A stretch of 64,000 nt of DNA from Omnitrophica bacterium GWA2_41_15. GTDB lineage: Bacteria; Omnitrophota; Gorgyraeia; Gygaellales; Profunditerraquicolaceae. The stretch's first letter is position 1, and every line of letters starts with the position of its first letter. A model generated the notes under the pieces. It saw only the letters and a list, made by a program, of their open reading frames with translations. It had not been told where the DNA came from and did no database searches. The position numbers and the translations under genes were made by a program. Below, in pieces: positions 473 through 61,319 of this stretch. Where the stretch lies: contig CAKKQB010000028.1 of NCBI GenBank assembly GCA_919901915.1, positions 38,499-102,498 on the forward strand, read 5' to 3'.

Positions 473-661
473 GTCATTCCCGCGAAAGCGGGAATCCAGA
501 ACAAGAATCTGGGAAAAAGGTGACTGTCACGCCTTTTATGACTGTCACCTTTTTTTCGCCCCGAATTATCATTCGAATTACCATTAAGGCAGACACATAG
601 GTCTGCCCCTACGGTTTCCCCGGAATTCTCCAGTAGAGACGAGGCACTGCCTCGTCTCTAC
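473..661. repeat. Cluster of four distinct palindromic elements downstream of SBBP paralog A
   Basis: gtcattcccgcgaaagcgggaatcc at 473-497; ggtgactgtcacgcc..gactgtcacc at 512-556; ggcagacacataggtctgcc at 588-607; gtagagacgaggcactgcctcgtctctac at 633-661. Further copies occur at 3147-3197, 2285-2316 and 41646-41685. Confidence 0.8.
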
Positions 662-17197: not shown

Positions 17198-17253
17198 TTT
17201 TAGCGGATAGCGGATAGCGGCTAGCGTATAGTTTTTCTATCCGCTATCCGCTT
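17198..17253. repeat. Heptamer-tandem hairpin (gcggata)n ... (tatccgc)n; one example of a pervasive family
   Basis: tttagcggatagcggatagcggctagcgtatagtttttctatccgctatccgc. More than 20 family members with different heptamer units sit at gene boundaries and inside genes. The coordinates are given in the findings. Confidence 0.85.
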
Positions 17254-21647: not shown

Positions 21648-23129
<1,482 letters not shown>

Positions 23130-28043: not shown

Positions 28044-28136
28044 GAGACTGGGTCAAATAGCTGTGTCATTCCCGCGAAAGTGGGAATCCTGAGACTGGGT
28101 CAAATAGCTGTGTCATTCCCGCGAAAGCGGGAATCC
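28044..28136. repeat. Tandem duplication of a 'gagactgggtcaaatagctgtgtcattcccgcgaaagcgggaatcc' unit
   Basis: Two nearly identical ~46-nt units at 28044-28089 and 28091-28136. Each contains the gtcattcccgcgaaagcgggaatcc palindrome. Confidence 0.8.
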
Positions 28137-30071: not shown

Positions 30072-31733
30072 TTAACTGTTACAACCGAAAAGAATAGCGT
30101 TATTCTTAGTAGATTCATCCCCTAGTTTTACGACAAAGCCGTCTGCGCCAACGACAAGATGCTTTTGCGGTTCCCATGATGTTGCTTCCCAGCCGGCTTC
30201 ATCACACGACCATCCTCCAACATAAATATTCTTACTATTCACAGCTAACGCAATAGGTTCCTCTCCAGGGCCAGAAATGCCTTTTTCACCTAACCATTGA
30301 CCCCACTTTACTGCAGGCAAAATGCCATCAATAATTTTTATAACGAACTTTTGCTTATGACCACTATATGTCCCCAAAAATGTTGTTTCCCAACCTATTT
30401 GAGGGCTGGTAACGCCAATCCCATAGGTATTGGACGTCCCTCCAACGTAAATATTATTACCATTCACAGCTAAAGCATTAACTGAATCCATTGCTTTTCC
30501 ACCTAACCACTGACCCCATTTCAATTCAGGCTTATTAGTAACGGGATTATCGAAAATTTTTATAACAAATAGTTCCCTCGTGCTAGAGCTTTTAAACTCA
30601 CCTAACATCGTTATTCCATCCAAGCCGGTTTTGCTAGTTGACTCCCCCCCAACATAGATATTGCTACCATTTACAGCTATGCATAGAACTAAATCATAGA
30701 TTTTTCCTCCTAACCATTGACCCCAAACCACCGAAGCACTCGGATCAATAAGCAACGGGTAATTTGAAAGAGACTCTTTAATAGAAACAGTTAAGGCATT
30801 ATCAGCGTTAATAATATAGGATGCAGTTTTTTTAACTCCATCAGCTGTCCAATAAACAAGAGGTTCTAAAATAGCGAGAGGTTTTTCATCGCCAAAAGCG
30901 ACATTATGGTTTAAGGCTTTACGCACAGTATCCATTACCGAGGCGCGTTTTTTAAGGTCAGAATTATCTATGCCGGAAATCTTCATTGTCCTGTAAACAT
31001 TAACACTACCGTTGGGCTGTTGTTTGAGAGTTACGCTTGCGCCAGAGTCAGTTGAAAATTTCCAGGTATATTGGCTTAAATTATCAGAATGATTAAAAGC
31101 CGTAGCTTGAATCCACTCTTTTAACATTGCGCCTTGAGCAGATTGAGAAGCAAGGTATATAATAGTGTCTGTTGGCCGTTGATAAACCTGCGCAGAGCCC
31201 AGCGGTTTAGATTTAACGGTGAACTGTTTAAAAGGGGCAGAATTATTATCTAATTCCATCGTGAACGAAGCAGTATCTTGACCGTTTTTCATCAGAAAAC
31301 GTTTTTTGACGGTGTCCGATTTAGCATCAAAAGAAACGCGCATTTCCACTGGGCTCGACCGACCGAGGGCGGAATGCCCGAGGAAGTCGGGATAATGCTC
31401 CACTCCTTCGTCATTCCGGCGCAAGCCGGAATCCAGTCCGGACTCTGACATAGCAAATGTTACAGCATCACTATTAGTTTGAAATTTTGGTTTACCTGTA
31501 GGAAATAAAGCAAGAGGCTCTGGCGCGAGTTTAGATATTTGCTTAAATATCCCCACGGTCATAGACAACTCTTGAGCTATTGGCCCAGGAATAGCCGCGT
31601 ACACGTTACCAGTTAAAAAAGGCGCCGAAGAAAACAAAATAAACACTGGTAAAATAATTAAACTAACTACTGCGGCATACTTCCTTATCATTTTCAATCC
31701 TCCATTTAAACTTCTACGCCCTTTTTCATCCAT
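30072..31733 (-). CDS. Secreted SBBP-type beta-propeller repeat protein, paralog B
   Basis: The N-terminal ~270 aa are homologous to 676..3123 (AIPGPIAQELSM..QISKLAPEP..DSGLRRNDEG). WGQWLGG...NIYVGG repeats and a C-terminal ...FGCNS. In-frame repeat copies at 31356-31392 and 31409-31435. Confidence 0.6.
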   Translation of the reverse strand: MDEKGRRSLNGGLKMIRKYAAVVSLIILPVFILFSSAPFLTGNVYAAIPGPIAQELSMTVGIFKQISKLAPEPLALFPTGKPKFQTNSDAVTFAMSESGLDSGLRRNDEGVEHYPDFLGHSALGRSSPVEMRVSFDAKSDTVKKRFLMKNGQDTASFTMELDNNSAPFKQFTVKSKPLGSAQVYQRPTDTIIYLASQSAQGAMLKEWIQATAFNHSDNLSQYTWKFSTDSGASVTLKQQPNGSVNVYRTMKISGIDNSDLKKRASVMDTVRKALNHNVAFGDEKPLAILEPLVYWTADGVKKTASYIINADNALTVSIKESLSNYPLLIDPSASVVWGQWLGGKIYDLVLCIAVNGSNIYVGGESTSKTGLDGITMLGEFKSSSTRELFVIKIFDNPVTNKPELKWGQWLGGKAMDSVNALAVNGNNIYVGGTSNTYGIGVTSPQIGWETTFLGTYSGHKQKFVIKIIDGILPAVKWGQWLGEKGISGPGEEPIALAVNSKNIYVGGWSCDEAGWEATSWEPQKHLVVGADGFVVKLGDESTKNNAILFGCNS

Positions 31734-48748: not shown

Positions 48749-49796
48749 TTTTTATGATTGTTAATTCGATACGCAAGACTAAAATTCGTGAAGCGTGAGG
48801 CGTGAAGCGTGAAGCGTAAAGCCGCGCCGCGTCCTTTTCTGTGGTGATAATTGTGTCTATACCCTTATCAACAGAATCTTTGATAATTTTATCTATATCT
48901 GTCTTGATGTAATTATGGTGGTCGGGAAATTTAAAAGATAAGCCTATTTTAGCGCCGAGTGAAATAATCAAATTTTCAAAGGAATCGGGGTCTCCTATGC
49001 CGCAAAATATACTTACGCGCTTATCCTTAAGTATATCTGTCCCAAATAATTCAGCGCTTTTTTCAAGATTATATAATCCTATGGGTTTATGAACACTTTC
49101 CGCGATCAATGTTTTTGGATTAATCTTACTTAAAATATCTTTAAGCTCATCCAGTTTCACCCCAAAATCAACCTTGGTCAAAAAAAAGATATCCGCGCGC
49201 CTCAAGCAAGAAAGCGGCTCGCGCAAGATCCCCCTGGGTATCATATGGCGGTTACCAAAGGGATTAACAGCATCAATAGTTACAATCTCTAAATCTTTTT
49301 TAAGCCTCCACTGCTGAAAGCCATCATCCAACATAACCGTATCCACGCCATAATCTTTAAGCGCTCTTTTTGCCGCCCTAATTCTATCCGCATCCACAAT
49401 TACCGGAATATCGTTTAATTTTTTAGAAAGCATGTAGGGCTCATCGCCCATGGTTTCATAGCGGATAGCGGATAGCGCCTGCCTGCCGGCAAGGCAGGGA
49501 TAGCGGATAGATTTTCTTTTATAACCGCGGGTTAATATTGCGACTTTGCGGCCTTCCTGTTTTAAATACCTCGCGATAACTTCAACTAAAGAGGTTTTTC
49601 CTGTCCCGCCTACGGTAATATTACCCACGCTGATGACTTTAACATTCAGGCGATTCTGCCTAAGGAAACAAAAAAAGATTAAACCCCTGATTACTAATCC
49701 ATAAATAAGGGAGATAAGAAATAGGAAACCTTTTACAATAGCCGGGCCAATTCCCTTATATTTATCTGTAGCTAAATTATAAAGATACTTTTTCAT
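48702..49796 (-). CDS. lpxK: Tetraacyldisaccharide 4'-kinase
   Basis: P-loop GNITVGGTGKT. Two in-frame repeat inserts: SIRYPCLAGRQALSAIRY (49459-49510) and RFTPHASR (48786-48823). Confidence 0.85.
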   Translation of the reverse strand: MKKYLYNLATDKYKGIGPAIVKGFLFLISLIYGLVIRGLIFFCFLRQNRLNVKVISVGNITVGGTGKTSLVEVIARYLKQEGRKVAILTRGYKRKSIRYPCLAGRQALSAIRYETMGDEPYMLSKKLNDIPVIVDADRIRAAKRALKDYGVDTVMLDDGFQQWRLKKDLEIVTIDAVNPFGNRHMIPRGILREPLSCLRRADIFFLTKVDFGVKLDELKDILSKINPKTLIAESVHKPIGLYNLEKSAELFGTDILKDKRVSIFCGIGDPDSFENLIISLGAKIGLSFKFPDHHNYIKTDIDKIIKDSVDKGIDTIITTEKDAARLYASRFTPHASRILVLRIELTIIKNEQEFYNRLLGLYSF

Positions 49797-50084
49797 ATAT
49801 TCTGTATCTTATCACACCGAGAGACTCCTGACAACATTTTATTGTAACCTAATCGTAGCCAAATTCAACCGCAAGATCGAATCAATTAATCTCCGATGAC
49901 AAATCAAAGCAAGCGCTTTCTTTTAGAGCTGATTTAGCCTTGTTTTTACCCAATTCATAGTGTATACTTTAAGTATAAATACGTATATCGTATCCATGAT
50001 TTTCACTACGCGGTAGAACCTTCAGCAAAAGCTTTCAGCTTAAAGCTTAAAGCTTTTGCTGACAGCTGATAGCTGATAGCTAAA

Positions 50085-50249
50085 ATGCGCAAACTTATAA
50101 TTTTAATTATCCTTATTACCTTTTCCTTCACCTCCTTAGGCTTCCCCCCAGGTTCTGCCTTCCCTTCCTGTCATTCCTGCGAAAGCAGGAATCCAGTCTC
50201 AACCCTTACTTCGTTACCTAAGCGTCAACTCTGCCAATCCCCGTAATTA
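50085..50249 (+). CDS. Signal-peptide-encoding 5' segment, probably the frameshifted start of the long ORF 50497..52320
   Basis: MRKLIILIILITFSFTSLG, then a C6 tract at 50144-50149. Removing one C joins this frame to the ~120 codons that run stop-free (from 50141, no ATG) into the 607-aa ORF. Confidence 0.45.
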
Positions 50250-50496
50250 TTTTAATTTCCTCTTAGATGAAGGAGGCTATCAGCCTTCAGCTGAAAGCCG
50301 AAAGCTGATAACTGACAGCTTAACAGATGAAGCCAAAAAACTCATCCATTATTTTTTCCTCGGCATTACCCTACCCTCAACCGCGTTCTGGGTAAACCTA
50401 CAACCAACTCAATCAGACAGAATTACCTCAGATGAACTCTCTAAGACTGATTTAGGCAGAACCCTGTTAGAGCAAGACTTACAACTTAAGAAAGAT

Positions 50497-52320
50497 ATGG
50501 CTAATTATTTGCATCCCAAGAATCCCGTAGGCAAACTCTATTGGGAAAAACTCTATTCTGCAATCGGCAAAGAAAAAGCCAAGAAAGCTAAAATTACTAC
50601 CTCAAATCGTGTCTGGATTACTCCGAATCAAGCAGTGGTTATGGAAACTGAAGACGGAGCCTTGGTTGCTAAGGCAACCCTAAAAGTAATGTTGGAGAAC
50701 GAATATCTGAGTAACCAGACACCTCCGCGGTGGCCGAAGGCCTCCGCGGAGGTGGAAGCGGTTAAGAATGAGCAAACCCAACAACTCAGCGAGCAACTAA
50801 TGAAAGAAATCATCATTCCTGCAATAACTAAGGACATCAACGAAAGCCCACGCTATGCGCCCTTGCGCCAGGTTTATTACTCTTTAATATTAGCAGAGTG
50901 GTATAAGAGAAAAGTTAGCCGAAAGCTGACAGTTGATAACCCATCCCCTTACGCCCCCTATATTAACTCCGGCACAACCGCCGGTTTGGAATCCGAAGTC
51001 CCTTGGAAAAAGCAAGCAATCTGGCAGGAATACCTAAAAAGCTACCAACAAGGCGAATACAAACTTCAGGATACGCTTTTTGGCCTAAAGAGGATGTATT
51101 TTAGCGGGGGGATAATAATTGAGTTAGGCAATACCCCTACTTTAACATCTATCACTCAAAAAAAATTATTAAATAATCCCGATTTAGCAAAGGGGTTAAG
51201 CATTTCAAAGAATCCTAATGAAGCACTTGTTATAGTAAATACTATTTTGGAAGATAATAAGCAAATCGCCAGCTCGTCTATGGATGGTCAATCTAATGAT
51301 CGATCTTTGGTTTATGAGCAGTGTTCTTTTGATTTTATAAAAGATGAAAGGAAAAAAGTTTTAGACATTCAAGCTGAAACTTTATTCAAAGAAATGGATG
51401 AATTGCAACAAAGAATAAATGCGCTTAATATTGTTAGCGACCTTTCCAAATTAGTTTGTAATGAAGATACACTTATTCGTAAAATTGGTGGAATTCTCTC
51501 TTCCTTTAAAAATTTAAAACAAAAAGTAGGCGCATCTAAGGAAAGTCTTTCATATGAAAGACTTAATAATAGGCTAAAAGAATTGGAAGAGTTACTATTT
51601 GAAAGATGTTATTTTTCAGTTTTGAAAGATTTGGAGAAAGAAAGATATAATGAGATTAGGTATGTTCAGAAGTTTTTGACGCTAAGATTATGTAGGGAAT
51701 CTTTAAATCTTATTGATTCTTTCATTAAGCATTTCCCGGATTTAAGCAAAGAAGAGCGAAAAAAATACTTATGGAATACTGAACTGCAGGTAGCTAACGT
51801 CCTTATACGGGATGATCTTTTTAGGGGAATAACGGCAAAGAATGATATTGCATGGATTAAAGATATGATGATAAAGGGTAAATTTCTTAGTGTCGCACCT
51901 CCTTTAAATAACTGTTGGTTATCGGCAAATTATTTTTATTCAACATTTAGATATAATGATGAATCTCCGCGAGCAAAATTGCTTTGTATCTTAGATGCTT
52001 TCCGAATATATGGGCATGTTTTAGCAGAGGAAGAATACTTCTCCGAATCGGAAGAGGAAAAATACTCCGACGCATCGGGATGGAGAAGCTGTTTAGAGGG
52101 TGACTTAGAAGATATCCTTAGTTCTTTAGATACAAAAGAATTTTATCAGATATCATCTTTGTCTAAGTTAGTTTCCTTAATTAAAAAAGAATTGAAAATC
52201 AAGAAGAACCCTTTGCTTAAGTTATTTAGAAAAAGTTTGTTTCAAAACGATGAAATAAAAGAATGTATTACTGAAATTGCCCTTTATTTTTTAAGGCAAA
52301 AAAAGGCATCGTATCCATAA
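50497..52320 (+). CDS. Large hypothetical protein, 607 aa as tracked; about 727 aa if joined to the upstream signal peptide
   Basis: No recognisable domains and a central coiled-coil-like region. The upstream in-frame extension is open and includes a translated gtcattcctgcgaaagcaggaatcc element (VIPAKAGIQ). Confidence 0.5.
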   Translation: MANYLHPKNPVGKLYWEKLYSAIGKEKAKKAKITTSNRVWITPNQAVVMETEDGALVAKATLKVMLENEYLSNQTPPRWPKASAEVEAVKNEQTQQLSEQLMKEIIIPAITKDINESPRYAPLRQVYYSLILAEWYKRKVSRKLTVDNPSPYAPYINSGTTAGLESEVPWKKQAIWQEYLKSYQQGEYKLQDTLFGLKRMYFSGGIIIELGNTPTLTSITQKKLLNNPDLAKGLSISKNPNEALVIVNTILEDNKQIASSSMDGQSNDRSLVYEQCSFDFIKDERKKVLDIQAETLFKEMDELQQRINALNIVSDLSKLVCNEDTLIRKIGGILSSFKNLKQKVGASKESLSYERLNNRLKELEELLFERCYFSVLKDLEKERYNEIRYVQKFLTLRLCRESLNLIDSFIKHFPDLSKEERKKYLWNTELQVANVLIRDDLFRGITAKNDIAWIKDMMIKGKFLSVAPPLNNCWLSANYFYSTFRYNDESPRAKLLCILDAFRIYGHVLAEEEYFSESEEEKYSDASGWRSCLEGDLEDILSSLDTKEFYQISSLSKLVSLIKKELKIKKNPLLKLFRKSLFQNDEIKECITEIALYFLRQKKASYP

Positions 52321-52328
52321 GCGCTAAC

Positions 52329-52715
52329 TTGATAGACGAATACGATTATTTTTTTGAATTAGAATACGCAAAAATAGAACCGTTCTTTTTGGATCTAATT
52401 GCGAAATTATACTTCCAAAAATTCAAGCCTACAAATTTAGTATTATCTCATAAACGGAAAGAAGAGAAAAAGTATATTAAAGAATACATAGAGCAGGCAG
52501 TTAAAGAAAATTTAAAGATATTGGGACTCTCTGAAACGGAAGATTCATGGGCTAATGTTCAAAACGCCCATCGGGGATTGGCTAAAAAATATCATCCTGA
52601 CCTTAATCCAGGGAAAAACACGCACGAAGAGTTTATAAAAATTCAAGGTGCGTATGAGTTTTTAGAAAATGATAGAAAAAAAATTTTCCTATTAAATCGT
52701 CTGCTTCGCCGATAA
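52329..52715 (+). CDS. Small J-domain (DnaJ-like) protein
   Basis: C-terminal J domain with an HPD motif (LAKKYHPDLNPGKNTHEEFIKIQGAYEFL) and a non-homologous N-terminus. Confidence 0.6.
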   Translation: MIDEYDYFFELEYAKIEPFFLDLIAKLYFQKFKPTNLVLSHKRKEEKKYIKEYIEQAVKENLKILGLSETEDSWANVQNAHRGLAKKYHPDLNPGKNTHEEFIKIQGAYEFLENDRKKIFLLNRLLRR

Positions 52716-52741
52716 AAAGCCAAGAATTTGTTTCTTCGGCA

Positions 52742-54046
52742 GTGGTTCAAGAACCAGATTTAACCGAGTCAGCCGACGCGGTTGCCAAGGGCAGCCCCTT
52801 AGTAAACAAAGATCACCGTTTTCTTGCAAAAGATCAACCCGACTCTTCAGTGCTGGAAACAGATATCAAGGAGGATACTACCAACTCGCCGACGGCGGCT
52901 GAACTTGCCTCTTTGGCGGTGAGAATATCTAAAAGTAATCTAAAAGATGTTAATAACGCTTCTTTGAATATTATTCAAGCCAAGGTCAATCCTAATTTAA
53001 GGGGTGATTTTAAAATAGCAATTCCTGGGGCGATAGTAGATAATACCCCAAAACCTGATAAGAAAATAGACAGTTCAAATAGCATAGAGAATAAAATTTT
53101 AGATTACATAACAAGGCATAGAGTAGACCCCTATGAACTTATTATGAAAAAATTTGAAGAAGGTTACCAAGTTATTACCTTAGGAGAAACGCATCATTGC
53201 AAAAAAATGCAAACCTTCTTCCTTTCTTTAATTAAAAGGTTAAAACAATCTCAGGATAATAATGTAATAATAGCCATGGAAGATGGTAATTCTAAATACC
53301 AACCGTATATTGAAAGCTTATTCTAGAGTTTAAAAGATGTAAAACCGGAGGCCCGAATTGAACATATTAACCAAGTATTATTTGATGCAACTAAAAAATT
53401 AGGAGATATAAATCATGAAGGTGTAGGAATTAGCGGCGTAACTAACTTGCTTTGTGAAACAATAAAGATAGCCTTCGAAAATAATATCAAAGTAATCTGC
53501 GTAGATCCAAAAAGGCCGTTTACAAGACGTGATGAAGAAATGGCTAAAAATATCGGAAATATTATAGAAAAAAATCCTGGAATTAAAATTCTTTTTTATG
53601 GAGGAGCAAGTCATGCTGCAAATACGTCTTATATTCAGAAGGGTGGGTGGTATCGCGACGAAGATGATGTCGCCCTTTATACCTCTCTAGGTAAATATCT
53701 TAAGACCCGTTATTCTTCAAAAAAAACGTACACTATTATTTTATCGAGCGATAAAGACCTCTTTCCTTATTTTGATGGAGGATGGTTTAGCCGAACATTT
53801 AACTTACCTTCTAATAATCAAATAGAGAAAATGGTTTTTGCTTTAGATGGATTAAAAGAGACGATATTTTCTCAGGATCCTTGGTTGTTTACAGGCGAAG
53901 AGGATAAGTGGGAAAAAATGTATGAAGGAAATAATATGCCGAGTTGGACAAAATATAAGCGTAGCAAATACAATATGTTAGGAAATGCAGCAAATGGCCT
54001 TATCTTTTTAGGCGCAACTTATCCTACGGCAGACAAAAAAACCTGA
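52742..54046 (+). pseudogene. ChaN/Tiki (PF04187-like) family protein interrupted by an in-frame TAG at 53324-53326
   Basis: ORFs 52742..53326 and 53447..54046 share one frame and are open between them except for the single TAG. The upstream half carries ITLGETHH and the downstream half KILFYGGASHAAN, matching the two His motifs of ChaN/Tiki. Confidence 0.5.
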
Positions 54047-54085
54047 ATTGGTTCTTTAGCGCTAAAAACACAAGACCTGACACTT

Positions 54086-54430
54086 ATGGCCCATAATTCA
54101 GATACAGGTGGCATCGATCTCTCTCAAATCGAACTCACGCTTAAGGACGAAGCGTATATGTCAGGCCTTAACCCCGCTGACAGAAAAATCCTCTATGCAG
54201 CCAACGCGTTAAAAAAGGACTGGGAAAGCCTTTCACTGCTTTATGTCCATGAAATAATGCTACTTTTAAAAGACAACCTTGTCTCGGATATACAGAATAA
54301 AACCCTTTTCCTTGATATCCTCAACCAACTCAAAGTCAAGGAATTCCTTAACCCACAGGCCGTGCAATTCCTTAATCTCATCCAGTCCCAAAAGCCCCTT
54401 TCTGAGATAAAACTCGCGCTGTATAATTAA
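54086..54430 (+). CDS. Hypothetical protein
   Basis: 114-aa ORF in the island with no recognisable motifs. Confidence 0.3.
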   Translation: MAHNSDTGGIDLSQIELTLKDEAYMSGLNPADRKILYAANALKKDWESLSLLYVHEIMLLLKDNLVSDIQNKTLFLDILNQLKVKEFLNPQAVQFLNLIQSQKPLSEIKLALYN

Positions 54431-54459
54431 AATCGCAGCCAATCGCAACTGAATAATAT

Positions 54460-54490
54460 CTATCTAACAATTTTAAATTGTGGTATAATT
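54460..54490 (+). promoter_or_regulatory. Candidate extended -10 promoter and operator for mntA-hepT
   Basis: tgGTATAAT at 54481-54489 (TGn extended -10) is flanked by direct repeats taaattgt ... taaattgt. RBS aaggag lies 6 nt before the ATG at 54525. Confidence 0.4.
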
Positions 54491-54524
54491 AAATTGTTAA
54501 AAAAAAATGAGAAAGGAGCGTAGG

Positions 54525-54824
54525 ATGTTTACAAAGAGTGATATATTGAAAGTAATCCAAGAAAATACGGATGAAATCAAAACCTACGGTATTAAAAGAA
54601 TAGGAATTTTTGGTTCATTTGCTAGGGCCGCAGAGAAGGATAAAAGCGACATTGATGTACTTATTGAATTTAAGAAAGGCAAAAAAGCGTTTGACAATTA
54701 TATGGAGACTAAATTTCTTTTGGAAAAGATATTTCATCGCAGGGTTGATTTAGTAATAAAAGAGGCATTAAAGCCTGAAATTAAAAAAAATATACTTCGT
54801 GAGGTAGTATATGCGAGAATATAA
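54525..54824 (+). CDS. mntA: MntA-type minimal nucleotidyltransferase antitoxin
   Basis: GIFGSFARAAEKDKSDIDVLIEF matches the GS..G....D.D motif of pol-beta-like nucleotidyltransferases. It overlaps the hepT start. The first ATG with an RBS is at 54525; the ORF track starts at 54507. Confidence 0.8.
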   Translation: MFTKSDILKVIQENTDEIKTYGIKRIGIFGSFARAAEKDKSDIDVLIEFKKGKKAFDNYMETKFLLEKIFHRRVDLVIKEALKPEIKKNILREVVYARI

Positions 54825-55164
54825 TCTTTATTTAAACGATATCCTTAAGAGTATTAAGAAGATAGAGAGAGAGAGAGAGATATATATATATACAAAAGGG
54901 CTAACCTTAAAACAGGTAATGAAGAATGAATTAGTCGTTGATGGAGTTGCCAAGAATCTGGAGGTGATAGGTGAAGCGGTAAAAAATATTCCTTTCCAGA
55001 TAAAAGAAAAATATCCGAAGATTGAATGGAAGAAAATTGCCGGTTTAAGGGATATTTTAACCCACGAATATTTTAGTATAGATTTGGAAGTCTTATGGGA
55101 TATTACACAGAATAAATTACCTATTTTGAAAAAGCAGATTTTAACATTACTGCTTACGAAGTGA
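54811..55164 (+). CDS. hepT: HepT-type HEPN toxin (DUF86)
   Basis: R-x4-H-x-Y motif RDILTHEY near the C-terminus; 117 aa. It overlaps mntA by 14 nt. Confidence 0.8.
   Translation: MREYNLYLNDILKSIKKIEREREIYIYTKGLTLKQVMKNELVVDGVAKNLEVIGEAVKNIPFQIKEKYPKIEWKKIAGLRDILTHEYFSIDLEVLWDITQNKLPILKKQILTLLLTK
54874..54902. repeat. Dinucleotide repeat (AG)8(AT)6 inside hepT
   Basis: The run agagagagagagagagatatatatatata is read as EREREIYIY. Confidence 0.85.
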
Positions 55165-55483
55165 AATAAGGTAATTCTCGCGGCATTGGCCTCAACCAAC
55201 TCAAGGCCAATGCCTCTTTTTCAATATCAAGTAGATACAATCCGCCGCCAAACGCAGTCTCTAAAATCCTGAATTGTGGTTCAGTGCTAGAGCCAATGGA
55301 TAACGCCCGCATTTTCTGAAATAACGGCAGTTCTTTACTCAACGCCCTTATAACCTTGGTCAGTTCCTCTTCAATATCAACCTTGTCATTACTGTAGCGC
55401 GACCAGATTTTATCTTCATGGCTTAATTTTAAACAGCCGGTCCTAACACCTGCCTCAATTATTTTTTTATCGGAATAATTCAT
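55154..55483 (-). CDS. Hypothetical protein; possibly an N-terminal fragment of a SAM-dependent methyltransferase
   Basis: RALSIGSSTEPQFRILETAFGGGLYLLDIEKEAL weakly resembles methyltransferase motif I. The ORF ends exactly where the plus-strand island begins. Confidence 0.3.
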   Translation of the reverse strand: MNYSDKKIIEAGVRTGCLKLSHEDKIWSRYSNDKVDIEEELTKVIRALSKELPLFQKMRALSIGSSTEPQFRILETAFGGGLYLLDIEKEALALSWLRPMPRELPYFTS

Positions 55484-56759
55484 TTTTTATTAATTCAATT
55501 GCCCTTTTTGTTGACCCCTTATTTTTAAAAAGCGTTTCTCCTGCCTTGCGGCCTATTTCCTTAGCCTGCCCGGGATCAATAAGGAGCTCTTTTATTTTTT
55601 GCTTTAGAGCCTCAGGGCTATTTACCATAATTGCGGCATCATCAGTCAAGAATAAATCAGTGATACCGCGAAAATTAAAGACGTGAGGGCCGAAGAGGAT
55701 TGGTTTTTCTAGGGAAGCGGGTTCTAAAATATTATGCCCGCCCTTTTGGACAAGGCTGCCGCCCACAAAGACAATGTCTGCGATTGTATAGTAACTCATA
55801 AGTTCTCCTATGGTATCTAGAATAAAAACTGTTTGCCGGTTTGCCCATTCACCCGTTAACCCGTTAACCCGCTCACCCATTAACCCGCTCACCCTTAAAG
55901 AATTAAATTCATATTTCTTTATCACCCGCTCTATCTCTTTAGCTCTCTCCGGATGCCGCGGGGCAATAAGTAATCTTAAATAAGGAAACTCCGACGATAA
56001 TTCTTTATAAACACTTAATATTATTTTCTCCTCCCCCGGATGCGTACTTGCCGCCACAAAAAGCTTTTCACGTTTTTCTAACCCTAATTTTTGCTTATAA
56101 TCCGTGTCCTTCGTGAATTTTTTATCCGTATAATCCGTAGTATCAAACTTCAAATTTCCGCTCACTTTGATTTTTTCCCGCGCAACCCCTAAAGCCGCGA
56201 ATCTTTCCGCGTCAAGTTGAGTTTGAACGCAAAAGAGCGAAATTTTGGTTAAAATTGGCTTTAATAAAAATTTTATAACTGAATACCCCTTAAAAGAGCC
56301 ATCTGAAATCCTGCCATTAACGGTAACAATCGGAATCTTTCTTTTATGGAGGCAGGAAATAAGATTCGGCCAAATTTCGGTTTCTGCCAAGATAAATAAG
56401 GATGGATTTATTTTATTTATTACTATCCGGACTAAGAAACTTAAATCTAAGGGAAGATACGTTACAAAGTCAGTTTCTTGGGCAATACTCTTTGCAATTT
56501 TATTTCCCGTGGCAGTTACAGTTGAAATTACGAAATTTTTACCGGGATAAGCCCTTCTTAACTCCTCCAATAAACTCCTTATCGCCATTACCTCGCCCAC
56601 ACTTACCGCGTGTATCCAGATGGGCCTATCTAATTTCAATCCCCGCGGCAAAATTCCCAATCGCGCCAAAAACCCCTTATGAAACTTCCTTTTAAATAAA
56701 TATACGGGTAAATAAATAAGCGCGAAAATCAAAAATATTAAATCGTATATTATAAACAT
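55467..56759 (-). CDS. waaA: 3-deoxy-D-manno-octulosonic acid transferase with an in-frame repeat insertion
   Basis: WIHAVSVGEV signature and a GT-B C-terminal domain (FVGGSLV.KGGHN.LE). The insert GERVNGLTGEWANRQ is encoded by the heptamer repeat at 55833-55896. Confidence 0.85.
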   Translation of the reverse strand: MFIIYDLIFLIFALIYLPVYLFKRKFHKGFLARLGILPRGLKLDRPIWIHAVSVGEVMAIRSLLEELRRAYPGKNFVISTVTATGNKIAKSIAQETDFVTYLPLDLSFLVRIVINKINPSLFILAETEIWPNLISCLHKRKIPIVTVNGRISDGSFKGYSVIKFLLKPILTKISLFCVQTQLDAERFAALGVAREKIKVSGNLKFDTTDYTDKKFTKDTDYKQKLGLEKREKLFVAASTHPGEEKIILSVYKELSSEFPYLRLLIAPRHPERAKEIERVIKKYEFNSLRVSGLMGERVNGLTGEWANRQTVFILDTIGELMSYYTIADIVFVGGSLVQKGGHNILEPASLEKPILFGPHVFNFRGITDLFLTDDAAIMVNSPEALKQKIKELLIDPGQAKEIGRKAGETLFKNKGSTKRAIELIKNELFR

Positions 56760-56795
56760 ATCATTAGTGATTAGTGATTAGTGCCCCTTTAATCT

Positions 56796-57164
56796 TTAAC
56801 CACCATTCACCTTCTTTTTAAGTGAGCTTATTAAGGCATTTAACATCTTCTTAATTTCAAGCAGATCTTTTACTAATAAATTTAATTCTTTAGAAAAAAC
56901 AAACTTCAGATTACTGGATATAATCAACAAAGTTTCTATCTCGCCACAAGAAGCTAATGCGATATATAAAAACTGAATATATTCATTAGTATATCTTCGG
57001 GTGTAACCTTCAGATATATTTGCTGGCACAGAAACCGCGGCTCTTCTAATTTGACTCACTAATCCATATAATTCTTCTTTAGGAAATGGGATTGTTTCTT
57101 GATATATCTTAGTTACAAAATCTACTGCTTTTTGCCAAACAATTAATTCCTTAAAGTCTTTCAC
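56796..57164 (-). CDS. Four-helix-bundle protein (TIGR02436 / 23S rRNA intervening-sequence protein family, Avd-like)
   Basis: 122 aa with IVWQKA...RRAAVSVPANISEGY, typical of this family. Confidence 0.7.
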   Translation of the reverse strand: MKDFKELIVWQKAVDFVTKIYQETIPFPKEELYGLVSQIRRAAVSVPANISEGYTRRYTNEYIQFLYIALASCGEIETLLIISSNLKFVFSKELNLLVKDLLEIKKMLNALISSLKKKVNGG

Positions 57165-57205
57165 TTTTTCTCCCTAACCCTAATCCCTAATCACTAATCA
57201 CTATC

Positions 57206-58075
57206 TTAGGCCCGCGGATGCGCCTTATCATAAACGTTTTTCAATTTCTCGGTAGTGAGATGGATATAAATCTGCGTAGTTGAAAGGCTCGCGTGGCCCA
57301 GGAGCTCCTGAACCGTCCTCAAATCCGCTCCGCGATTTAATAGGTGTGTGGCAAAACTATGCCTAAAGGTATGCGCTGATACGCCTGATTTCACCCCGGC
57401 TATATGAATATATTTTCCCACGATATCCATCACGCCTCGGCTAGTTATGCGCTTCCCGTTTTTATTTAAAAATATAGCGGCTATCTGCTTCTTTTTTTTG
57501 TCCTGATATTTTCTTATTGCTGTTAAAGCAGTATCGCCAATAGGAACAAGGCGCTCTTTCTTGCCTTTTCCTAAAACCTTAATTGTTCCGCTGATAAAAT
57601 CAATATTCTCTAAATTTAACCCGACTAATTCCGAAATTCGCAATCCCGCGGAATAAAATGTCTCTAAGATTGCCCGATCGCGCAAGCCTAATAGATCTTT
57701 TTCACTTTTCGCGAAAGCGCCCTCAATTAATTTGGCTGTCTCCTCTTCAGTCATAAAAGATGGGAGGCGCTTTTCTTGCTTGGGACTTGAGATCGCGAGC
57801 ACAGGATTAACTTTTAAATAACCGTCGCGGGTCAAAAACCTAAAAAAACTGCGTAACGCGGAAAGCCTGCGATTAACCGTCCGTGACGAGAGATTTTTTT
57901 GTTTTAAAAACCCCAAGTACTTTCGCAAAATAAGGTAATCAATTTTTTCTAAATCAGTTTCGCCAATAAATTTCGCGAAATCTACCAGATCTAATTTATA
58001 ATTTAAGATTGTATGAGCTGAATAATTCTTTTCTATCTCTAAATAACGGGCAAATTTTTCAATATACTTTTCCAT
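57206..58075 (-). CDS. Tyrosine recombinase XerC/XerD family
   Basis: The catalytic R..H..R..Y tetrad is readable (ARDRAILE...HTFRHSFAT...GHASLSTTQIYIHL); 289 aa. Confidence 0.85.
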   Translation of the reverse strand: MEKYIEKFARYLEIEKNYSAHTILNYKLDLVDFAKFIGETDLEKIDYLILRKYLGFLKQKNLSSRTVNRRLSALRSFFRFLTRDGYLKVNPVLAISSPKQEKRLPSFMTEEETAKLIEGAFAKSEKDLLGLRDRAILETFYSAGLRISELVGLNLENIDFISGTIKVLGKGKKERLVPIGDTALTAIRKYQDKKKKQIAAIFLNKNGKRITSRGVMDIVGKYIHIAGVKSGVSAHTFRHSFATHLLNRGADLRTVQELLGHASLSTTQIYIHLTTEKLKNVYDKAHPRA

Positions 58076-60036
58076 TATTCCTTATCAGAGGGGAGGGTCT
58101 TTGAAATGAATCTGCATTTCGGGAAATTTGAGCAACCGTAAAAAAGGCCTCTTTTTGAATGGCGTTCAATCAACTCCCCGCCGCAATTTGGTTCAAGGCA
58201 TTTTACCCCTGAAGTAATGGATTTGGAATTCTTACAGTTAGGAAAATCAGAGCAACTTAAAAATTTCCCTCTTCTTCCCCATTTTATCACCATCGGTTTC
58301 GCGCATTGAACACAAATCTCTTCGGTTACAATAACCTCTTTTTTAATATTCGCCTGCGCGAAGTCAAGGCTCACTTTAAAAGGTTGGTAAAAATCTTCCA
58401 ACACCTTCAATTTATTGACGCGGCCATCCTCTATCCCGTCAAGCTCTTCCTCCATAAGCGCGGTAAATTTTAAATCCATAATTTTAGGGAAATACTCAAC
58501 CAAGAGGTCACAAACCTTAAATCCTAACTCAGTAGGAGTAAAGTAACCTTTAATTCTGCGCGCGTAATCGCGGTAAATTAATGTAGAGATTATAGGAGCA
58601 TACGTAGAAGGCCTGCCAATACCCTCCTCCTCTAATGCCTTAACCAAAGAGCTATCTGAAAATCTCGCTGGCGGCTTTGTAAAATGTTGCGACGGGATTA
58701 ATTTAAGCAAATCTAAAACCGAATCTTTTTGCAGTTCAGGAATTTTATTTTTTTCTTGAGCCTCGTCATTTTTATTATAAACAGCGCTAAACCCATTAAA
58801 GACAAGATCGCTTCCTGAAGCTGTAAATAAGTATTGATCCGCCATAATACTAACGGAAACTTGAAGATAACGGCTAGGGGTCATTTGACTGGAGACAAAA
58901 CGATTATAAATAATTTCATATAGTTCGTATTGATCAAGAGTTAAAAATTCCCTCAGGCTCTCAGCGGGCCTTGTGATTAAAGTAGGACGAATAGCTTCAT
59001 GCGCCTCTTGAGCAAGCTTCTTTACCTTATAGACATTGGGTGTTGGGGGCAAATAATCAACTCCAAAATTTTTAGTAATATAATCTCTTACTTCATTTAT
59101 TGCTTCCGGAGCTGCCCGAGGTGAATCAGTACGCATATAAGTAATTAAACCCACGGGATTATCATTGCCAATATCAATACCTTCATAAAGTTGCTGCGCG
59201 ATAATCATGGTTTTAACGGCATTAAACCTTAACTTATTAAATGCTTCCTGCTGTAAGGTACTCGTAATAAAAGGCGCTTCCGGAAAACGTTTCTTTTCTA
59301 TCTTTTTTATATCTTGAACCCGGAATTCTTTGCCCTTTATTTCTTCAACTAACCTGTCAGATTCTTCCTTATTTTTTATCTGCGCTTTTTCATCTCCTAT
59401 TTTTGCAAGCTTCGCCAAAAATGAGCCTTCAGCCTCGGGGCGCTTGAATTCCGCCTCCATCTCCCAATATTCCATAGAAATAAAGGCCTTAATCTGTTTT
59501 TCTCTTTCAATAATCAACCGCAAGGCTACTGATTGAACCCTGCCCGCGCTTAAACCTCGGGCTATTTTTTTCCAAAGCAAAGGGCTCAAAAAATAACCGA
59601 CAATCCTATCCAAAACTCTTCGGCCAATCTGCGCCTCAATCATTCCAAGATTAAAATCACGTGGTTTTTTAAACGCCTCAGCAACAGCGGAAGAAGTAAT
59701 TTCATGAAATTCAACGCGCAAAACCTCTTTATCTTTAAAAAGTTTCTCTTTAAGCTGCCAGCCAATCGCCTCGCCTTCCCTGTCAGGGTCAGTAGCAATG
59801 TATATTTTATCTTTGGCCTTGGCCTCCTTCTTAAGAGAACTTAACATCTTCTTTCTCGTGGAAATGGTTGTATATTCCGGCTTAAAACCATTCTCAACAT
59901 CTACACCAAGCTTTCTCCTGGGAAGATCGATTATGTGGCCCATAGAAGAAGTTACCAAAAATTCAGGGCCTAAAATCCTGCCTATCGTCTTTGCCTTGGT
60001 CGGAGATTCTACTATTACTAAACTTTTAGCTTTCAT
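58075..60036 (-). CDS. topA: DNA topoisomerase I
   Basis: TOPRIM start LVIVESPTKAKTI, the catalytic Tyr region, and C-terminal Cys4 zinc ribbons (CVQCAKPM...C...C). Confidence 0.85.
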   Translation of the reverse strand: MKAKSLVIVESPTKAKTIGRILGPEFLVTSSMGHIIDLPRRKLGVDVENGFKPEYTTISTRKKMLSSLKKEAKAKDKIYIATDPDREGEAIGWQLKEKLFKDKEVLRVEFHEITSSAVAEAFKKPRDFNLGMIEAQIGRRVLDRIVGYFLSPLLWKKIARGLSAGRVQSVALRLIIEREKQIKAFISMEYWEMEAEFKRPEAEGSFLAKLAKIGDEKAQIKNKEESDRLVEEIKGKEFRVQDIKKIEKKRFPEAPFITSTLQQEAFNKLRFNAVKTMIIAQQLYEGIDIGNDNPVGLITYMRTDSPRAAPEAINEVRDYITKNFGVDYLPPTPNVYKVKKLAQEAHEAIRPTLITRPAESLREFLTLDQYELYEIIYNRFVSSQMTPSRYLQVSVSIMADQYLFTASGSDLVFNGFSAVYNKNDEAQEKNKIPELQKDSVLDLLKLIPSQHFTKPPARFSDSSLVKALEEEGIGRPSTYAPIISTLIYRDYARRIKGYFTPTELGFKVCDLLVEYFPKIMDLKFTALMEEELDGIEDGRVNKLKVLEDFYQPFKVSLDFAQANIKKEVIVTEEICVQCAKPMVIKWGRRGKFLSCSDFPNCKNSKSITSGVKCLEPNCGGELIERHSKRGLFYGCSNFPKCRFISKTLPSDKE

Positions 60037-60158
60037 TTTAATTCAACGGGTTAAATAATAATTCTATTATTTGGGCGGTTCACGGACCGCCCCTACAAAA
60101 AAATGGTGTCAGAACTCCCTATCCCTGCTATGGTTTGGGTTCAATTATAAGTTATAAA

Positions 60159-61319
60159 TTATAAGCTTTTTGGCTTATAACTTACAAAATGTTTCCCCGG
60201 AACCTGTTTGATTAGCCTTTTCATTTGCAACTTTAAAAGTATATCAGAAATCCTTGAAACATCCATATTTGTTTTTTTCACGAGCTCATCTAATTGAATC
60301 TTTTCTTCTGACATCAAAGCAAAAACACGGTTTTCTTCTTTATCAAGCGTTATGACTTCATCCCCGCGGGATTCACCACTTGCAACGCGATCTCCCCCAT
60401 CTGCTTCATGGCTTTTCCGCTCCCTTATCTCATGCCAGCCCCTCCTGATCATTAAAGGCAGGAGCTCTTCCAAAATATCATCTACGCAAGAAATCAACTT
60501 CGCGCCTTGCTTAATTAAATTATTCGTGCCAAAAGATGTTTCAGAATCAACTTTGCCAGGCATCGCGAAAACTTCCCTGCCCTGCTCCAAAGCAAAATCC
60601 GCGGTTATAAGCGCGCCACTATTTTTTGCCGCCTCTGCCACCAAAAGGCCTAAAGACAAACCGCTGATAAGACGGTTTCTTCGCGGAAAATTTTGTTTCT
60701 CCGGCATAGTATTTACTGGAAATTCTGAAATAACCGCGCCATTTCTAGATATCTCTTCGGATAATTCCCTGTTTTCAGGCGGATAAATATGATTGAATCC
60801 ACTCCCCATTACCGCGATAGTGCGGCCTTTCTGCTTTAACGCGCCACGATGGCTGTAAGTATCAATGCCGCGCGCCATACCTGAAACAATGGTAAACCCT
60901 TTAGCTGATAATTGAAAGGCAAACTTTTGGGCATTCATCAAGCCATAAATAGAAGCCCGGCGCGAGCCAACAAGGCCTATGCTAAATTTATCCTCTTCTT
61001 TTAAATTTCCCTTAACATAAAGCGCGATTGGCGGGTCATAAATATCTTTAAGATTTTGCGGGTATTCAAGATCATCCCGCGTAATAATTTTTAAGCCGAA
61101 TTTCTTAGCCAAACCCAGCTCTTTATCAAGGGTATCACTCTTAAATGAGTTAATTTTAGCGGCTATTTTTTTTCCGATACCCGAAACTCCCATCAATTTT
61201 TCACAAGAAGCCTTTAAAATATCTTGCGGCTTATCAAAAAATTCCAACAGTTTTTTTAAACGGACACCTCCAATATCACCGATCAAATTCAAACTAACCA
61301 ACGCCTCGAACTTCGTCAT
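60159..61319 (-). CDS. dprA: DNA processing protein DprA (Smf)
   Basis: Rossmann-like DprA core (IVSGMARGIDTYSHRGAL...GSGFNHIYPPEN) and a C-terminal winged-helix domain. Confidence 0.85.
   Translation of the reverse strand: MTKFEALVSLNLIGDIGGVRLKKLLEFFDKPQDILKASCEKLMGVSGIGKKIAAKINSFKSDTLDKELGLAKKFGLKIITRDDLEYPQNLKDIYDPPIALYVKGNLKEEDKFSIGLVGSRRASIYGLMNAQKFAFQLSAKGFTIVSGMARGIDTYSHRGALKQKGRTIAVMGSGFNHIYPPENRELSEEISRNGAVISEFPVNTMPEKQNFPRRNRLISGLSLGLLVAEAAKNSGALITADFALEQGREVFAMPGKVDSETSFGTNNLIKQGAKLISCVDDILEELLPLMIRRGWHEIRERKSHEADGGDRVASGESRGDEVITLDKEENRVFALMSEEKIQLDELVKKTNMDVSRISDILLKLQMKRLIKQVPGKHFVSYKPKSL

Follow-up and report, generated by a model that had tools for sequence, protein, structure and literature searches.

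Slippage pseudogenes in bacteria are found among dispensable paralogs. Intact homologs of such a gene exist, its frame is broken at mononucleotide runs, and extra nonsense mutations are present. One gene is affected with its neighbours intact, and similarity and codon bias are retained. The contingency loci of Neisseria, Haemophilus and Campylobacter carry simple-sequence tracts, of poly-G/C or of tetranucleotides, in the 5' coding regions of surface-protein genes, and in a homopolymer there a change of +/-1 nucleotide (nt) switches the frame. A further related system is the +1 frameshifting of translation, either programmed as in prfB/RF2 or caused by slippage of tRNA-Pro. Here we analyzed a locus at positions 50085-54430 of a 64,000-nucleotide stretch of DNA from Omnitrophica bacterium GWA2_41_15 (assembly GCA_919901915.1, contig CAKKQB010000028.1; hereafter the window), in which a run of six C residues (C6) separates a signal peptide from the rest of a secreted protein. 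The locus resembles the slippage pseudogenes in all of the points above. It differs from them in that its parent family is uncharacterised, the organism belongs to the uncultured groundwater Omnitrophota, and the loss of function is inferred. With the contingency loci it shares the position of the run, the kind of gene and the switch of frame by +/-1 nt. It differs from them in the 6-nt length of the tract, the lack of length variation between assemblies, the lack of the tract in a paralog and at that site in 80 family loci, and an ON state that would be incomplete. As in +1 frameshifting, CCC-C stands at the junction and a +1 slip yields a family-like protein; unlike in the prfB/RF2 type, there is no slow A-site stop, no Shine-Dalgarno-like stimulator and no conservation in homologs.

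We consider it probable (about 0.78 for the pseudogene reading as a whole) that the locus is a paralog of a secreted Omnitrophota protein, recently turned into a pseudogene and carrying a slippage mutation that is fixed, and that 50085-54430 was one ancestral gene of about 1,450 codons. C6 carries a genuine, population-majority 1-nt insertion. The features of the gene are as follows, with lengths of open reading frames (ORFs) in amino acids (aa).

50085..50147, plus strand: signal-peptide coding segment (MRKLIILIILITFSFTSLGFP) in frame A, then out of register to the TAA at 50244-50246
50144..50149, plus strand: C6 run (CCCCCC) in the codon context TTC CCC CCA GGT, the likeliest site of a 1-nt insertion, frame A to frame B (+1)
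50140..52320, plus strand: open frame in frame B, with the conserved N-domain (about 50149-51190) and then a lineage-specific middle region
52275..52320, plus strand: second frameshift window, frame B to frame A (-1), with T6 at 52287-52292, A7 at 52298-52304 and the frame-B stop TAA at 52318-52320
52329..52715, plus strand: J-domain (DnaJ) segment in frame A with the HPD motif, called as a 128-aa ORF with a TTG start
52676..52715, plus strand: third frameshift window, frame A to frame C (-1), with A8 at 52676-52683, after which frame C reads KKNFPIKSSASPIK
52742..53326, plus strand: N-terminal part of a ChaN/Tiki-like domain in frame C, ending at the in-frame TAG 53324-53326
53327..54046, plus strand: continuation of frame C, 40 open codons and then a called 199-aa ORF, ending at the in-frame TGA 54044-54046
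54062..54430, plus strand: family C-terminal domain (GGIDLSQIELTLKDEAY…SLSLLYVHEIM…) in frame C, called as a 114-aa ORF at 54086-54430

The ATG at 50085-50087 opens frame A (frame 0) as MRKLIILIILITFSFTSLGFPPGSAF... and gives an ORF of 53 aa. A first-pass annotation of the window had read this start as a signal peptide running into C6 at 50144-50149. The sequence and the match to the family N-terminus (a basic start, a hydrophobic stretch and then G[FL]AQ) bear this out. The frame-0 stop that it had placed at about 50247 exists, at 50244-50246. Frame B, the +1 frame, is open from 50140, immediately 3' of the TAG at 50137-50139, and not from 50141 as first given. The absence of a start over some 120 codons was correctly noted: no ATG, GTG or TTG occurs in frame B 5' of ATG 50497, across 119 codons. 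When one C was removed in silico, the two frames fused into a single secreted product, as had been proposed, with a length of 744 aa instead of ~727 aa and the N-terminus ...SLGFPQVLPSL (...TGLAQVLPSL in the paralog P0002). The frame shift is bounded by the TAG at 50137-50139 in frame B and by the start of homology at 50149. The run by itself is not unusual. CCCCCC occurs 19 times on both strands of the window, compared with 25.8 +/- 6.6 in dinucleotide-preserving shuffles. It is the conserved coding sequence, lying in two different frames on the two sides of the run, that goes beyond chance.

A search with the protein corrected to five C residues (C5) found 440 homologs, practically all from Omnitrophota; besides the ORF itself, no protein in this search covered more than 70% of the query. 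The homologs share an N-terminus in which a basic and hydrophobic signal peptide, with G[FL]AQ at its end, precedes a conserved domain of ~320 aa with the consensus …LRYLSVNSANP.NYFNFLLD…FWVNL…LEQDLQLKKD…RVWI.PD…LRQ.Y.SL…. The motif [FLIVM]AQ was found within the first 75 aa, after a hydrophobic N-terminus, in 101 of 119 homologs. In the window, the match to this N-domain begins at 50149 in frame B, and the signal peptide lies in frame A. The family motif of signal peptide and N-domain (LRYLS…FWVNL…LQLKKD…RPWIVP…LRQVYYS) is thus complete and split over two frames. By tblastn, the family proteins P0002, P0126 and P0129 matched 50149-51192 at 58-68% identity, the 68% being that of P0002 residues 26-367 against 50149-51114. 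P0002 is a paralog in the same assembly with equal coverage. In the DNA alignment with its locus (L002), 16 nt of the window (GGCTTCCCCCCAGGTT) stood against 15 nt of the paralog (GGTCTGGCTCAAGTT), which places one extra base in the region of the C-run. The paralog has no C-run at the corresponding site and reads GGCTCAAG. Family homology and the paralog alignment therefore support the earlier proposal that one gene comprised both the signal peptide and the 607-aa ORF and that a +1 change in the C-run has divided them.

The annotated start of that ORF, ATG 50497, falls within the conserved N-domain. An AlphaFold2 model of the domain, built on a 37-sequence alignment, had a pLDDT (predicted local distance difference test) mostly above 70 for residues 20-321 (10-residue block means, many above 85). 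Residues 20-119 in this model, which form two strands and two long helices, are encoded 5' of ATG 50497. Since these elements are encoded upstream of its start, the 607-aa ORF, as deposited in NCBI and ENA, is predicted to be a truncated domain and no natural protein. The model had no significant fold match in the PDB, and neither Pfam nor NCBIfam holds a model for the N- or C-domain of the family.

No match to a true ortholog with the same middle region was found in GTDB genomes, and the C-run was therefore compared with paralogs and family loci. Eighty family loci from other genomes (GTDB) were taken from 449 relatives in a one-genome-per-species collection. In all 80, the signal peptide was in frame with the N-domain (79 by script; L058 was intact on inspection). 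A C or G run of at least 6 nt was present in the 5' region of one of the 80, as a C6 located at another codon, with the frame kept. Of the 119 listed homologs, too, nearly all had the signal peptide in frame, the one other exception being P0014. In the P0014 gene (L004 1281-1510, Logan contig SRR22388346_1079753), the signal peptide MSIPQGIKRVICLFLAACFF is in frame 0 and the mature part in frame +1. The frames join at a T7 run (1334-1340), with the same +1 direction in an unrelated sample. This case shows that sporadic decay of paralogs occurs in the family, and shows no conserved mechanism. P0084 and P0105 were considered as further frameshifts and rejected, as their starts had been miscalled and the signal peptide lies in frame upstream.

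The first-pass annotation had envisaged a single gene of ~727 aa ending at 52320. This was not borne out, because the gene extends to 54430 and contains two further frameshifts and two stops beyond that point. In a codon-usage scan trained on 38 intact genes of the window, the coding signal was unbroken over 50085-54430, with the frame order A, B, A, C: frame A for the signal peptide, B from 50146 to ~52300, A at ~52300-52690 and C at ~52690-54430. Frame A reopens at 52275, and the coding potential moves from B to A at about 52300. The segment that follows is a J-domain (Pfam PF00226, E = 9.4e-12, residues 63-118; NCBIfam DnaJ models match too), and the intact family members P0072 and P0114 contain J-domains internally. 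Frame C opens at 52676, the coding potential moves from A to C at about 52690, and the KKNFPIKSSASPIK read there is an ASSP linker of the family type.

From this point, frame C runs for 585 codons with two stops only, the TAG and the TGA. The read-through translation matched PF04187 with 31.9 bits (cut-off 27.7) at profile positions 7-60, and this match ended exactly at the TAG. The 40 codons 3' of the TAG, annotated as intergenic (53327-53446), have a strong coding signal, with a frame-C potential of 11.5-13.7 across 53350-53469. The segment 53327..54046 showed a weak match to the later part of the erythromycin-esterase profile, a family presumably related to ChaN. This weak match, the coding potential and the end of the Pfam match at the stop together suggest that the TAG may split one ChaN-like domain. 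Pairwise BLAST of the ChaN-like region against a similar-looking domain of P0055 was not significant.

The downstream part was further compared by local BLAST against 120 family proteins, by an exhaustive HMMER search with the 114-aa ORF and by tblastn. The family C-domain has the consensus GGID[LF]…LNPAD.KIL.AAKAL…SLSLLYVHEIM… over ~110 aa. The C-domain of the window matched the extreme C-termini of P0004 and P0009 at 61-62% identity in local BLAST, and P0002, P0126 and P0129 at 41-64%. A 41% match to P0002 over 201 aa spans the TGA at 54044. In the HMMER search, the C-domain lay at most about 25 residues from the C-terminus in 30 proteins of 346-4676 aa. Full-length P0002, P0126 and P0129 were collinear with the locus in tblastn (N-domain at 50149-51192, C-domain at 54062-54427), and the spacing between the two domains was ~1,408 aa in the window and ~1,370 aa in P0126 and P0129. 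In the window, the C-domain (GGID[LF]…) is collinear with the N-domain and lies on another frame and ORF instead of at the end of the same polypeptide. Since two more frameshifts and two in-frame stops follow up to 54430, the locus is regarded as a pseudogene.

There are five lesions in all: three frameshifts (in windows with C6, with T6 and A7, and with A8) and the in-frame TAG 53324 and TGA 54044. They are confined to this gene. The other 44 long ORFs of the window are tightly tiled and intact, and their 190 homopolymer runs of at least 6 nt are without a frameshift; the locus has 3 frameshifts among 22 runs (hypergeometric p about 1e-3). Outside the locus, the other long ORFs end with TAA in 25 cases, TAG in 11 and TGA in 8. 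A global reassignment of TAG or TGA was rejected, as both end many other ORFs of the window, which contains no tRNA genes.

C6 and all five lesions are present in two separately deposited assemblies. The contig Hain_H43_02um_R1_96 of ERZ1292640 (coverage 44) was 100% identical to window positions 48811-61164. NODE_43 of ERZ1292638 (coverage 33.8) was identical over 13.8 kb except for one single-nucleotide polymorphism (SNP) at 53486 and one (GA)n unit. The SNP, an A/G difference within the pseudogene (ATC or GTC, Ile/Val), is the sole substitution in the 13.8 kb of shared sequence. The Hainich groundwater libraries were sequenced on an Illumina NextSeq with 2x150 bp reads (PMC8672522). To judge from the contig name, ERZ1292638 and ERZ1292640 probably belong to this library set. 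It is therefore unlikely that a platform prone to homopolymer errors explains the lesions.

The present state of the gene was most likely reached as follows. A G-to-C change (GCC to CCC) would have replaced the conserved Ala of G-F-A-Q by Pro and thereby created a C5 run (ttC CCC Cag), and replication slippage would then have extended C5 to C6. Once the frame is corrected, G-F-P-Q stands at the cleavage motif, Pro replacing the Ala of the family. Proline at the conserved Ala of a signal-peptidase site is probably damaging, and its presence here fits relaxed selection. Translation from ATG 50085 would give a 53-aa peptide only. The next in-frame start, ATG 50497, would give a protein that lacks both the signal peptide and the initial ~100 residues of the folded N-domain. 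The gene would be further disabled by two -1 frameshifts, the windows of which contain A/T runs, and by two nonsense codons (TAG and TGA). The short frame-0 product and the truncated fold predicted from ATG 50497 suggest that no functional product is made. Since the residual coding signal is strong and no large deletions are present, the sequence points to a recent inactivation. We infer the slippage mechanism, the Ala-to-Pro step preceding it and the loss of function; any order given to the five lesions would be conjectural. The locus shows homology to intact genes on both sides of the break, carries several lesions, and these are specific to it. It descends from the family and is no longer an intact member.

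Other explanations were weighed against this one. The first-pass annotation had offered a phase-variable tract, a sequencing or assembly indel and programmed frameshifting, none of which turned out to be the best explanation. If the locus were phase-variable, high-frequency slipped-strand mispairing at the poly-C would set the secreted protein ON at C5 or C8 and OFF at C6. The setting is the usual one for a contingency gene, namely the 5' coding region of a member of a secreted, multi-paralog, fast-evolving family. Moreover, a true length polymorphism exists 4.7 kb away in a HepT gene, the (GA)n of which differs between the assemblies, and the signal peptide of P0014 is likewise out of frame, by +1, at its T7 run. 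Poly-G/C tracts known to act as switches mostly have a length of at least 7-8 nt. For a hypermutable tract, C6 is short, and C6 runs are not enriched in the window. The consensus sequences of both assemblies have C6 although they differ at (GA)n, the paralog is without the tract, and all 80 family loci are in frame, with the only C6 elsewhere. The C5 state would in any case be a 744-aa protein ending at 52320, before the J-domain, the ChaN-like domain and the C-domain, with two frameshifts and two stops remaining. Phase variation is thus an improbable explanation. An indel of sequencing or assembly would mean that the true genome has C5 and an intact gene start. Homopolymers are the classic sites of such errors, and all three frameshift windows hold runs. 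It is hard to reconcile with this that Illumina libraries at contig coverages of 34x and 44x gave the identical C6 in two assemblies that differ elsewhere, or that none of the 190 runs in the other 44 ORFs is frameshifted. The lesions cannot be homopolymer errors throughout, because the two nonsense substitutions are beyond the reach of such errors. We regard a sequencing error as highly unlikely.

A physiological +1 shift during translation has a concrete form here: peptidyl-tRNA-Pro would slip from CCC to the overlapping CCC on TTC-CCC-CCA-GGT, giving a 744-aa secreted protein identical to the C5 product. The slippery P-site sequence CCC-C is indeed present at 50145-50148, and frame 0 reads Pro-Pro-Gly, at which a stall might give more time to slip. 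Pro-Pro-Gly is an EF-P-dependent stalling motif. CC[C/U]-[C/U] has been described as a +1-slippery tRNA-Pro motif, with up to ~1% shifting at CCC-C in E. coli (PMC4519876). The site is not conserved, however, since neither the paralog nor any of the 80 family loci needs a shift. CCA (Pro) occupies the A site, being neither a stop nor an obviously rare codon, and frame 0 has 32 more sense codons. The upstream sequence CCTCCTTAGG is not Shine-Dalgarno-like. The hairpin of a palindromic repeat downstream was rejected as a stimulator on account of its spacing, beginning 22 nt 3' of the C-run, and its nature as a dispersed repeat. An Rfam scan of 49500-54800 gave one chance-level T-box match only and no frameshifting element, and the downstream lesions argue against selection on the gene. 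Leakiness at C6 is expected to be error-level at most, and functional frameshifting is extremely unlikely. It is also very doubtful that C6 yields a low, condition-dependent amount of the 744-aa protein (e.g. tuned by EF-P or m1G37) or acts as a slow ON/OFF switch; if it did, the T7 frameshift of P0014 would hint at recurrent silencing or tuning of effector-like family members. The remaining possibility is gene fission, in which the locus would consist of separate functional genes for a cytoplasmic 607-aa protein, a 128-aa J-protein, two ChaN-like halves and a 114-aa C-domain protein. Gene callers annotate separate ORFs in every deposited copy, each piece has a possible start (ATG, TTG, GTG, TTG, ATG), and short proteins with the C-domain only are found in a representative library. 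Against this, ATG 50497 lies inside the folded N-domain of the model, with residues 20-119 lost, and the 119 conserved codons 5' of it are open with a coding signal. Three successive "genes" share one frame with single stops between them, and the coding signal bridges the gaps; the ChaN-like match ends right at the TAG, and the C-domain is always C-terminal in the long family proteins. Fission is accordingly given little credence.

The reading of the locus as a pseudogene is therefore preferred, and several points that weigh against it should be stated. The comparison of C6 rests on assembly consensus, so that a minority C5 allele in the population is possible. Both assemblies come from the same aquifer project and could share a systematic artefact. 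The shifts from B to A and from A to C are based on coding potential, open frames and family architecture, with no direct alignment. Intact members without the C-domain exist (e.g. P0028, P0033 and P0039), and family architecture alone therefore does not compel a union of the 607-aa ORF with the ORFs downstream of it in one gene. Short C-domain matches that stand alone, 57-225 aa in length and possibly fragments, occur in the representative library.

The parent family is large: tblastn confirmed 449 matches in the one-genome-per-species collection, where genomes have several paralogs each. It is restricted mainly to Omnitrophota. Its members consist of a signal peptide, the ~320-aa N-domain, ASSP-type linkers, a variable middle ("cargo") and the ~110-aa C-domain. 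The middle domains include J-domain, HEAT, SAM methyltransferase, radical SAM, M23 peptidase, FHA and metallophosphoesterase domains; that of the window gene consists of the J-domain and the ChaN/Tiki-like domain. As a speculation, this layout is suggestive of delivered, cargo-carrying secreted effectors, which would suit a phylum proposed as host-dependent. The locus in itself is of little weight, being one more homopolymer-slippage pseudogene, of the classic kind, in a paralog family that expands and contracts. Its deposited annotation as five "hypothetical proteins" (607, 128, 194, 199 and 114 aa) is misleading, and it should be marked as one disrupted gene. A signal peptide followed by a frameshift calls for a check of the whole gene before phase variation or recoding is invoked.

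Two repeat elements lie within the pseudogene.

50170..50194, plus strand: palindromic repeat gtcattcctgcgaaagcaggaatcc with an 8-bp stem and a GAAA loop, translated in frame as VIPAKAGIQ
50276..50319, plus strand: AGCTGAWAGC-type repeat with a 7-nt period, an in-frame insertion (…QPSAESRKLITDS…)

The VIPAKAGIQ element had already been recognized in the upstream open frame by the first-pass annotation. Compared with the paralog, it is a net 18-nt in-frame insertion. The region 50130-50215 had a fold energy of -19.6 kcal/mol (z = -3.0). The underlying palindrome, CATTCC(N)GCG(A/C)AAGC(N)GGAATC (22-25 nt), occurs in 7 copies in the window (475-496, 2853-2874, 23053-23074, 28067-28088, 28114-28135, 31412-31433 and 50172-50193), where 0 are expected. 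The copies show complementary base changes on both arms of the stem, and 4 of the 7, including the VIPAKAGIQ copy, lie within ORFs and are translated in frame as part of them. In-frame insertion into protein-coding genes is known for the Rickettsia palindromic elements and for other small palindromic repeats. The VIPAKAGIQ hairpin, to which alone this comparison applies, resembles the Rickettsia elements: it is a dispersed palindrome that occurs in intergenic positions as well as in frame within ORFs, is tolerated in variable loops and has its stem kept by complementary changes. It differs in length (~25 nt compared with roughly 100-150 nt) and in phylum, and showed no sign of mobility here.

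The second repeat forms the SAESRKLITDS stretch, a net 15-nt in-frame insertion compared with the paralog. It had 10 matches, with 0.06 expected. Related copies with the 7-nt period fill the 5' leader of the pseudogene (50031-50080) and are also present in the 5' leader of the paralog. The repeat AGC(T/G)GA(W)AGC… was also seen at 17202-17218 and 49460-49476, the latter copy (minus strand) lying in frame inside lpxK, where it reads …LSAIRYE…. Both repeat insertions in the pseudogene occupy linkers that vary within the family, and they have no relation to the frameshift.

Some other features of the window deserve mention. At 56796-58075 (minus strand), a 23S-rRNA-IVP/bAvd-like gene (PF05635, E = 5e-37) adjoins a tyrosine integrase gene, the pair being flanked by kdtA-like and topA genes. 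A mobile or diversity-generating element may have left this pair behind; no reverse transcriptase was seen in the vicinity. The gene at 676-3123 (minus strand) has C-runs of 6-9 nt about every 200 bp (1080, 1249, 1468, 1664, 1872 and 2073), because its Gly-rich YVGG motifs use G-runs on the coding strand. It encodes an 815-aa secreted protein with the repeats …DRV.ALAV.G..IYVGG…GFV.KI…, by eye reminiscent of a beta-propeller, with no Pfam match and with an in-frame insertion of the hairpin element near the N-terminus. Downstream of the pseudogene, a HepT-like toxin gene (54811-55164, plus strand; PF01934, E = 6e-26) adjoins its MNT-type nucleotidyltransferase partner at 54507-54824. Near its 5' end lies a (GA)n(TA)6 tract, at 54860-54892 of the window and 10360-10395 of L001. 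The window and ERZ1292640 are one GA unit shorter than ERZ1292638. The gene is intact in the window (117 aa) and split into 31 + 81 aa in ERZ1292638. The (GA)n tract is thus a real repeat-length polymorphism that turns the toxin gene on or off between assemblies.

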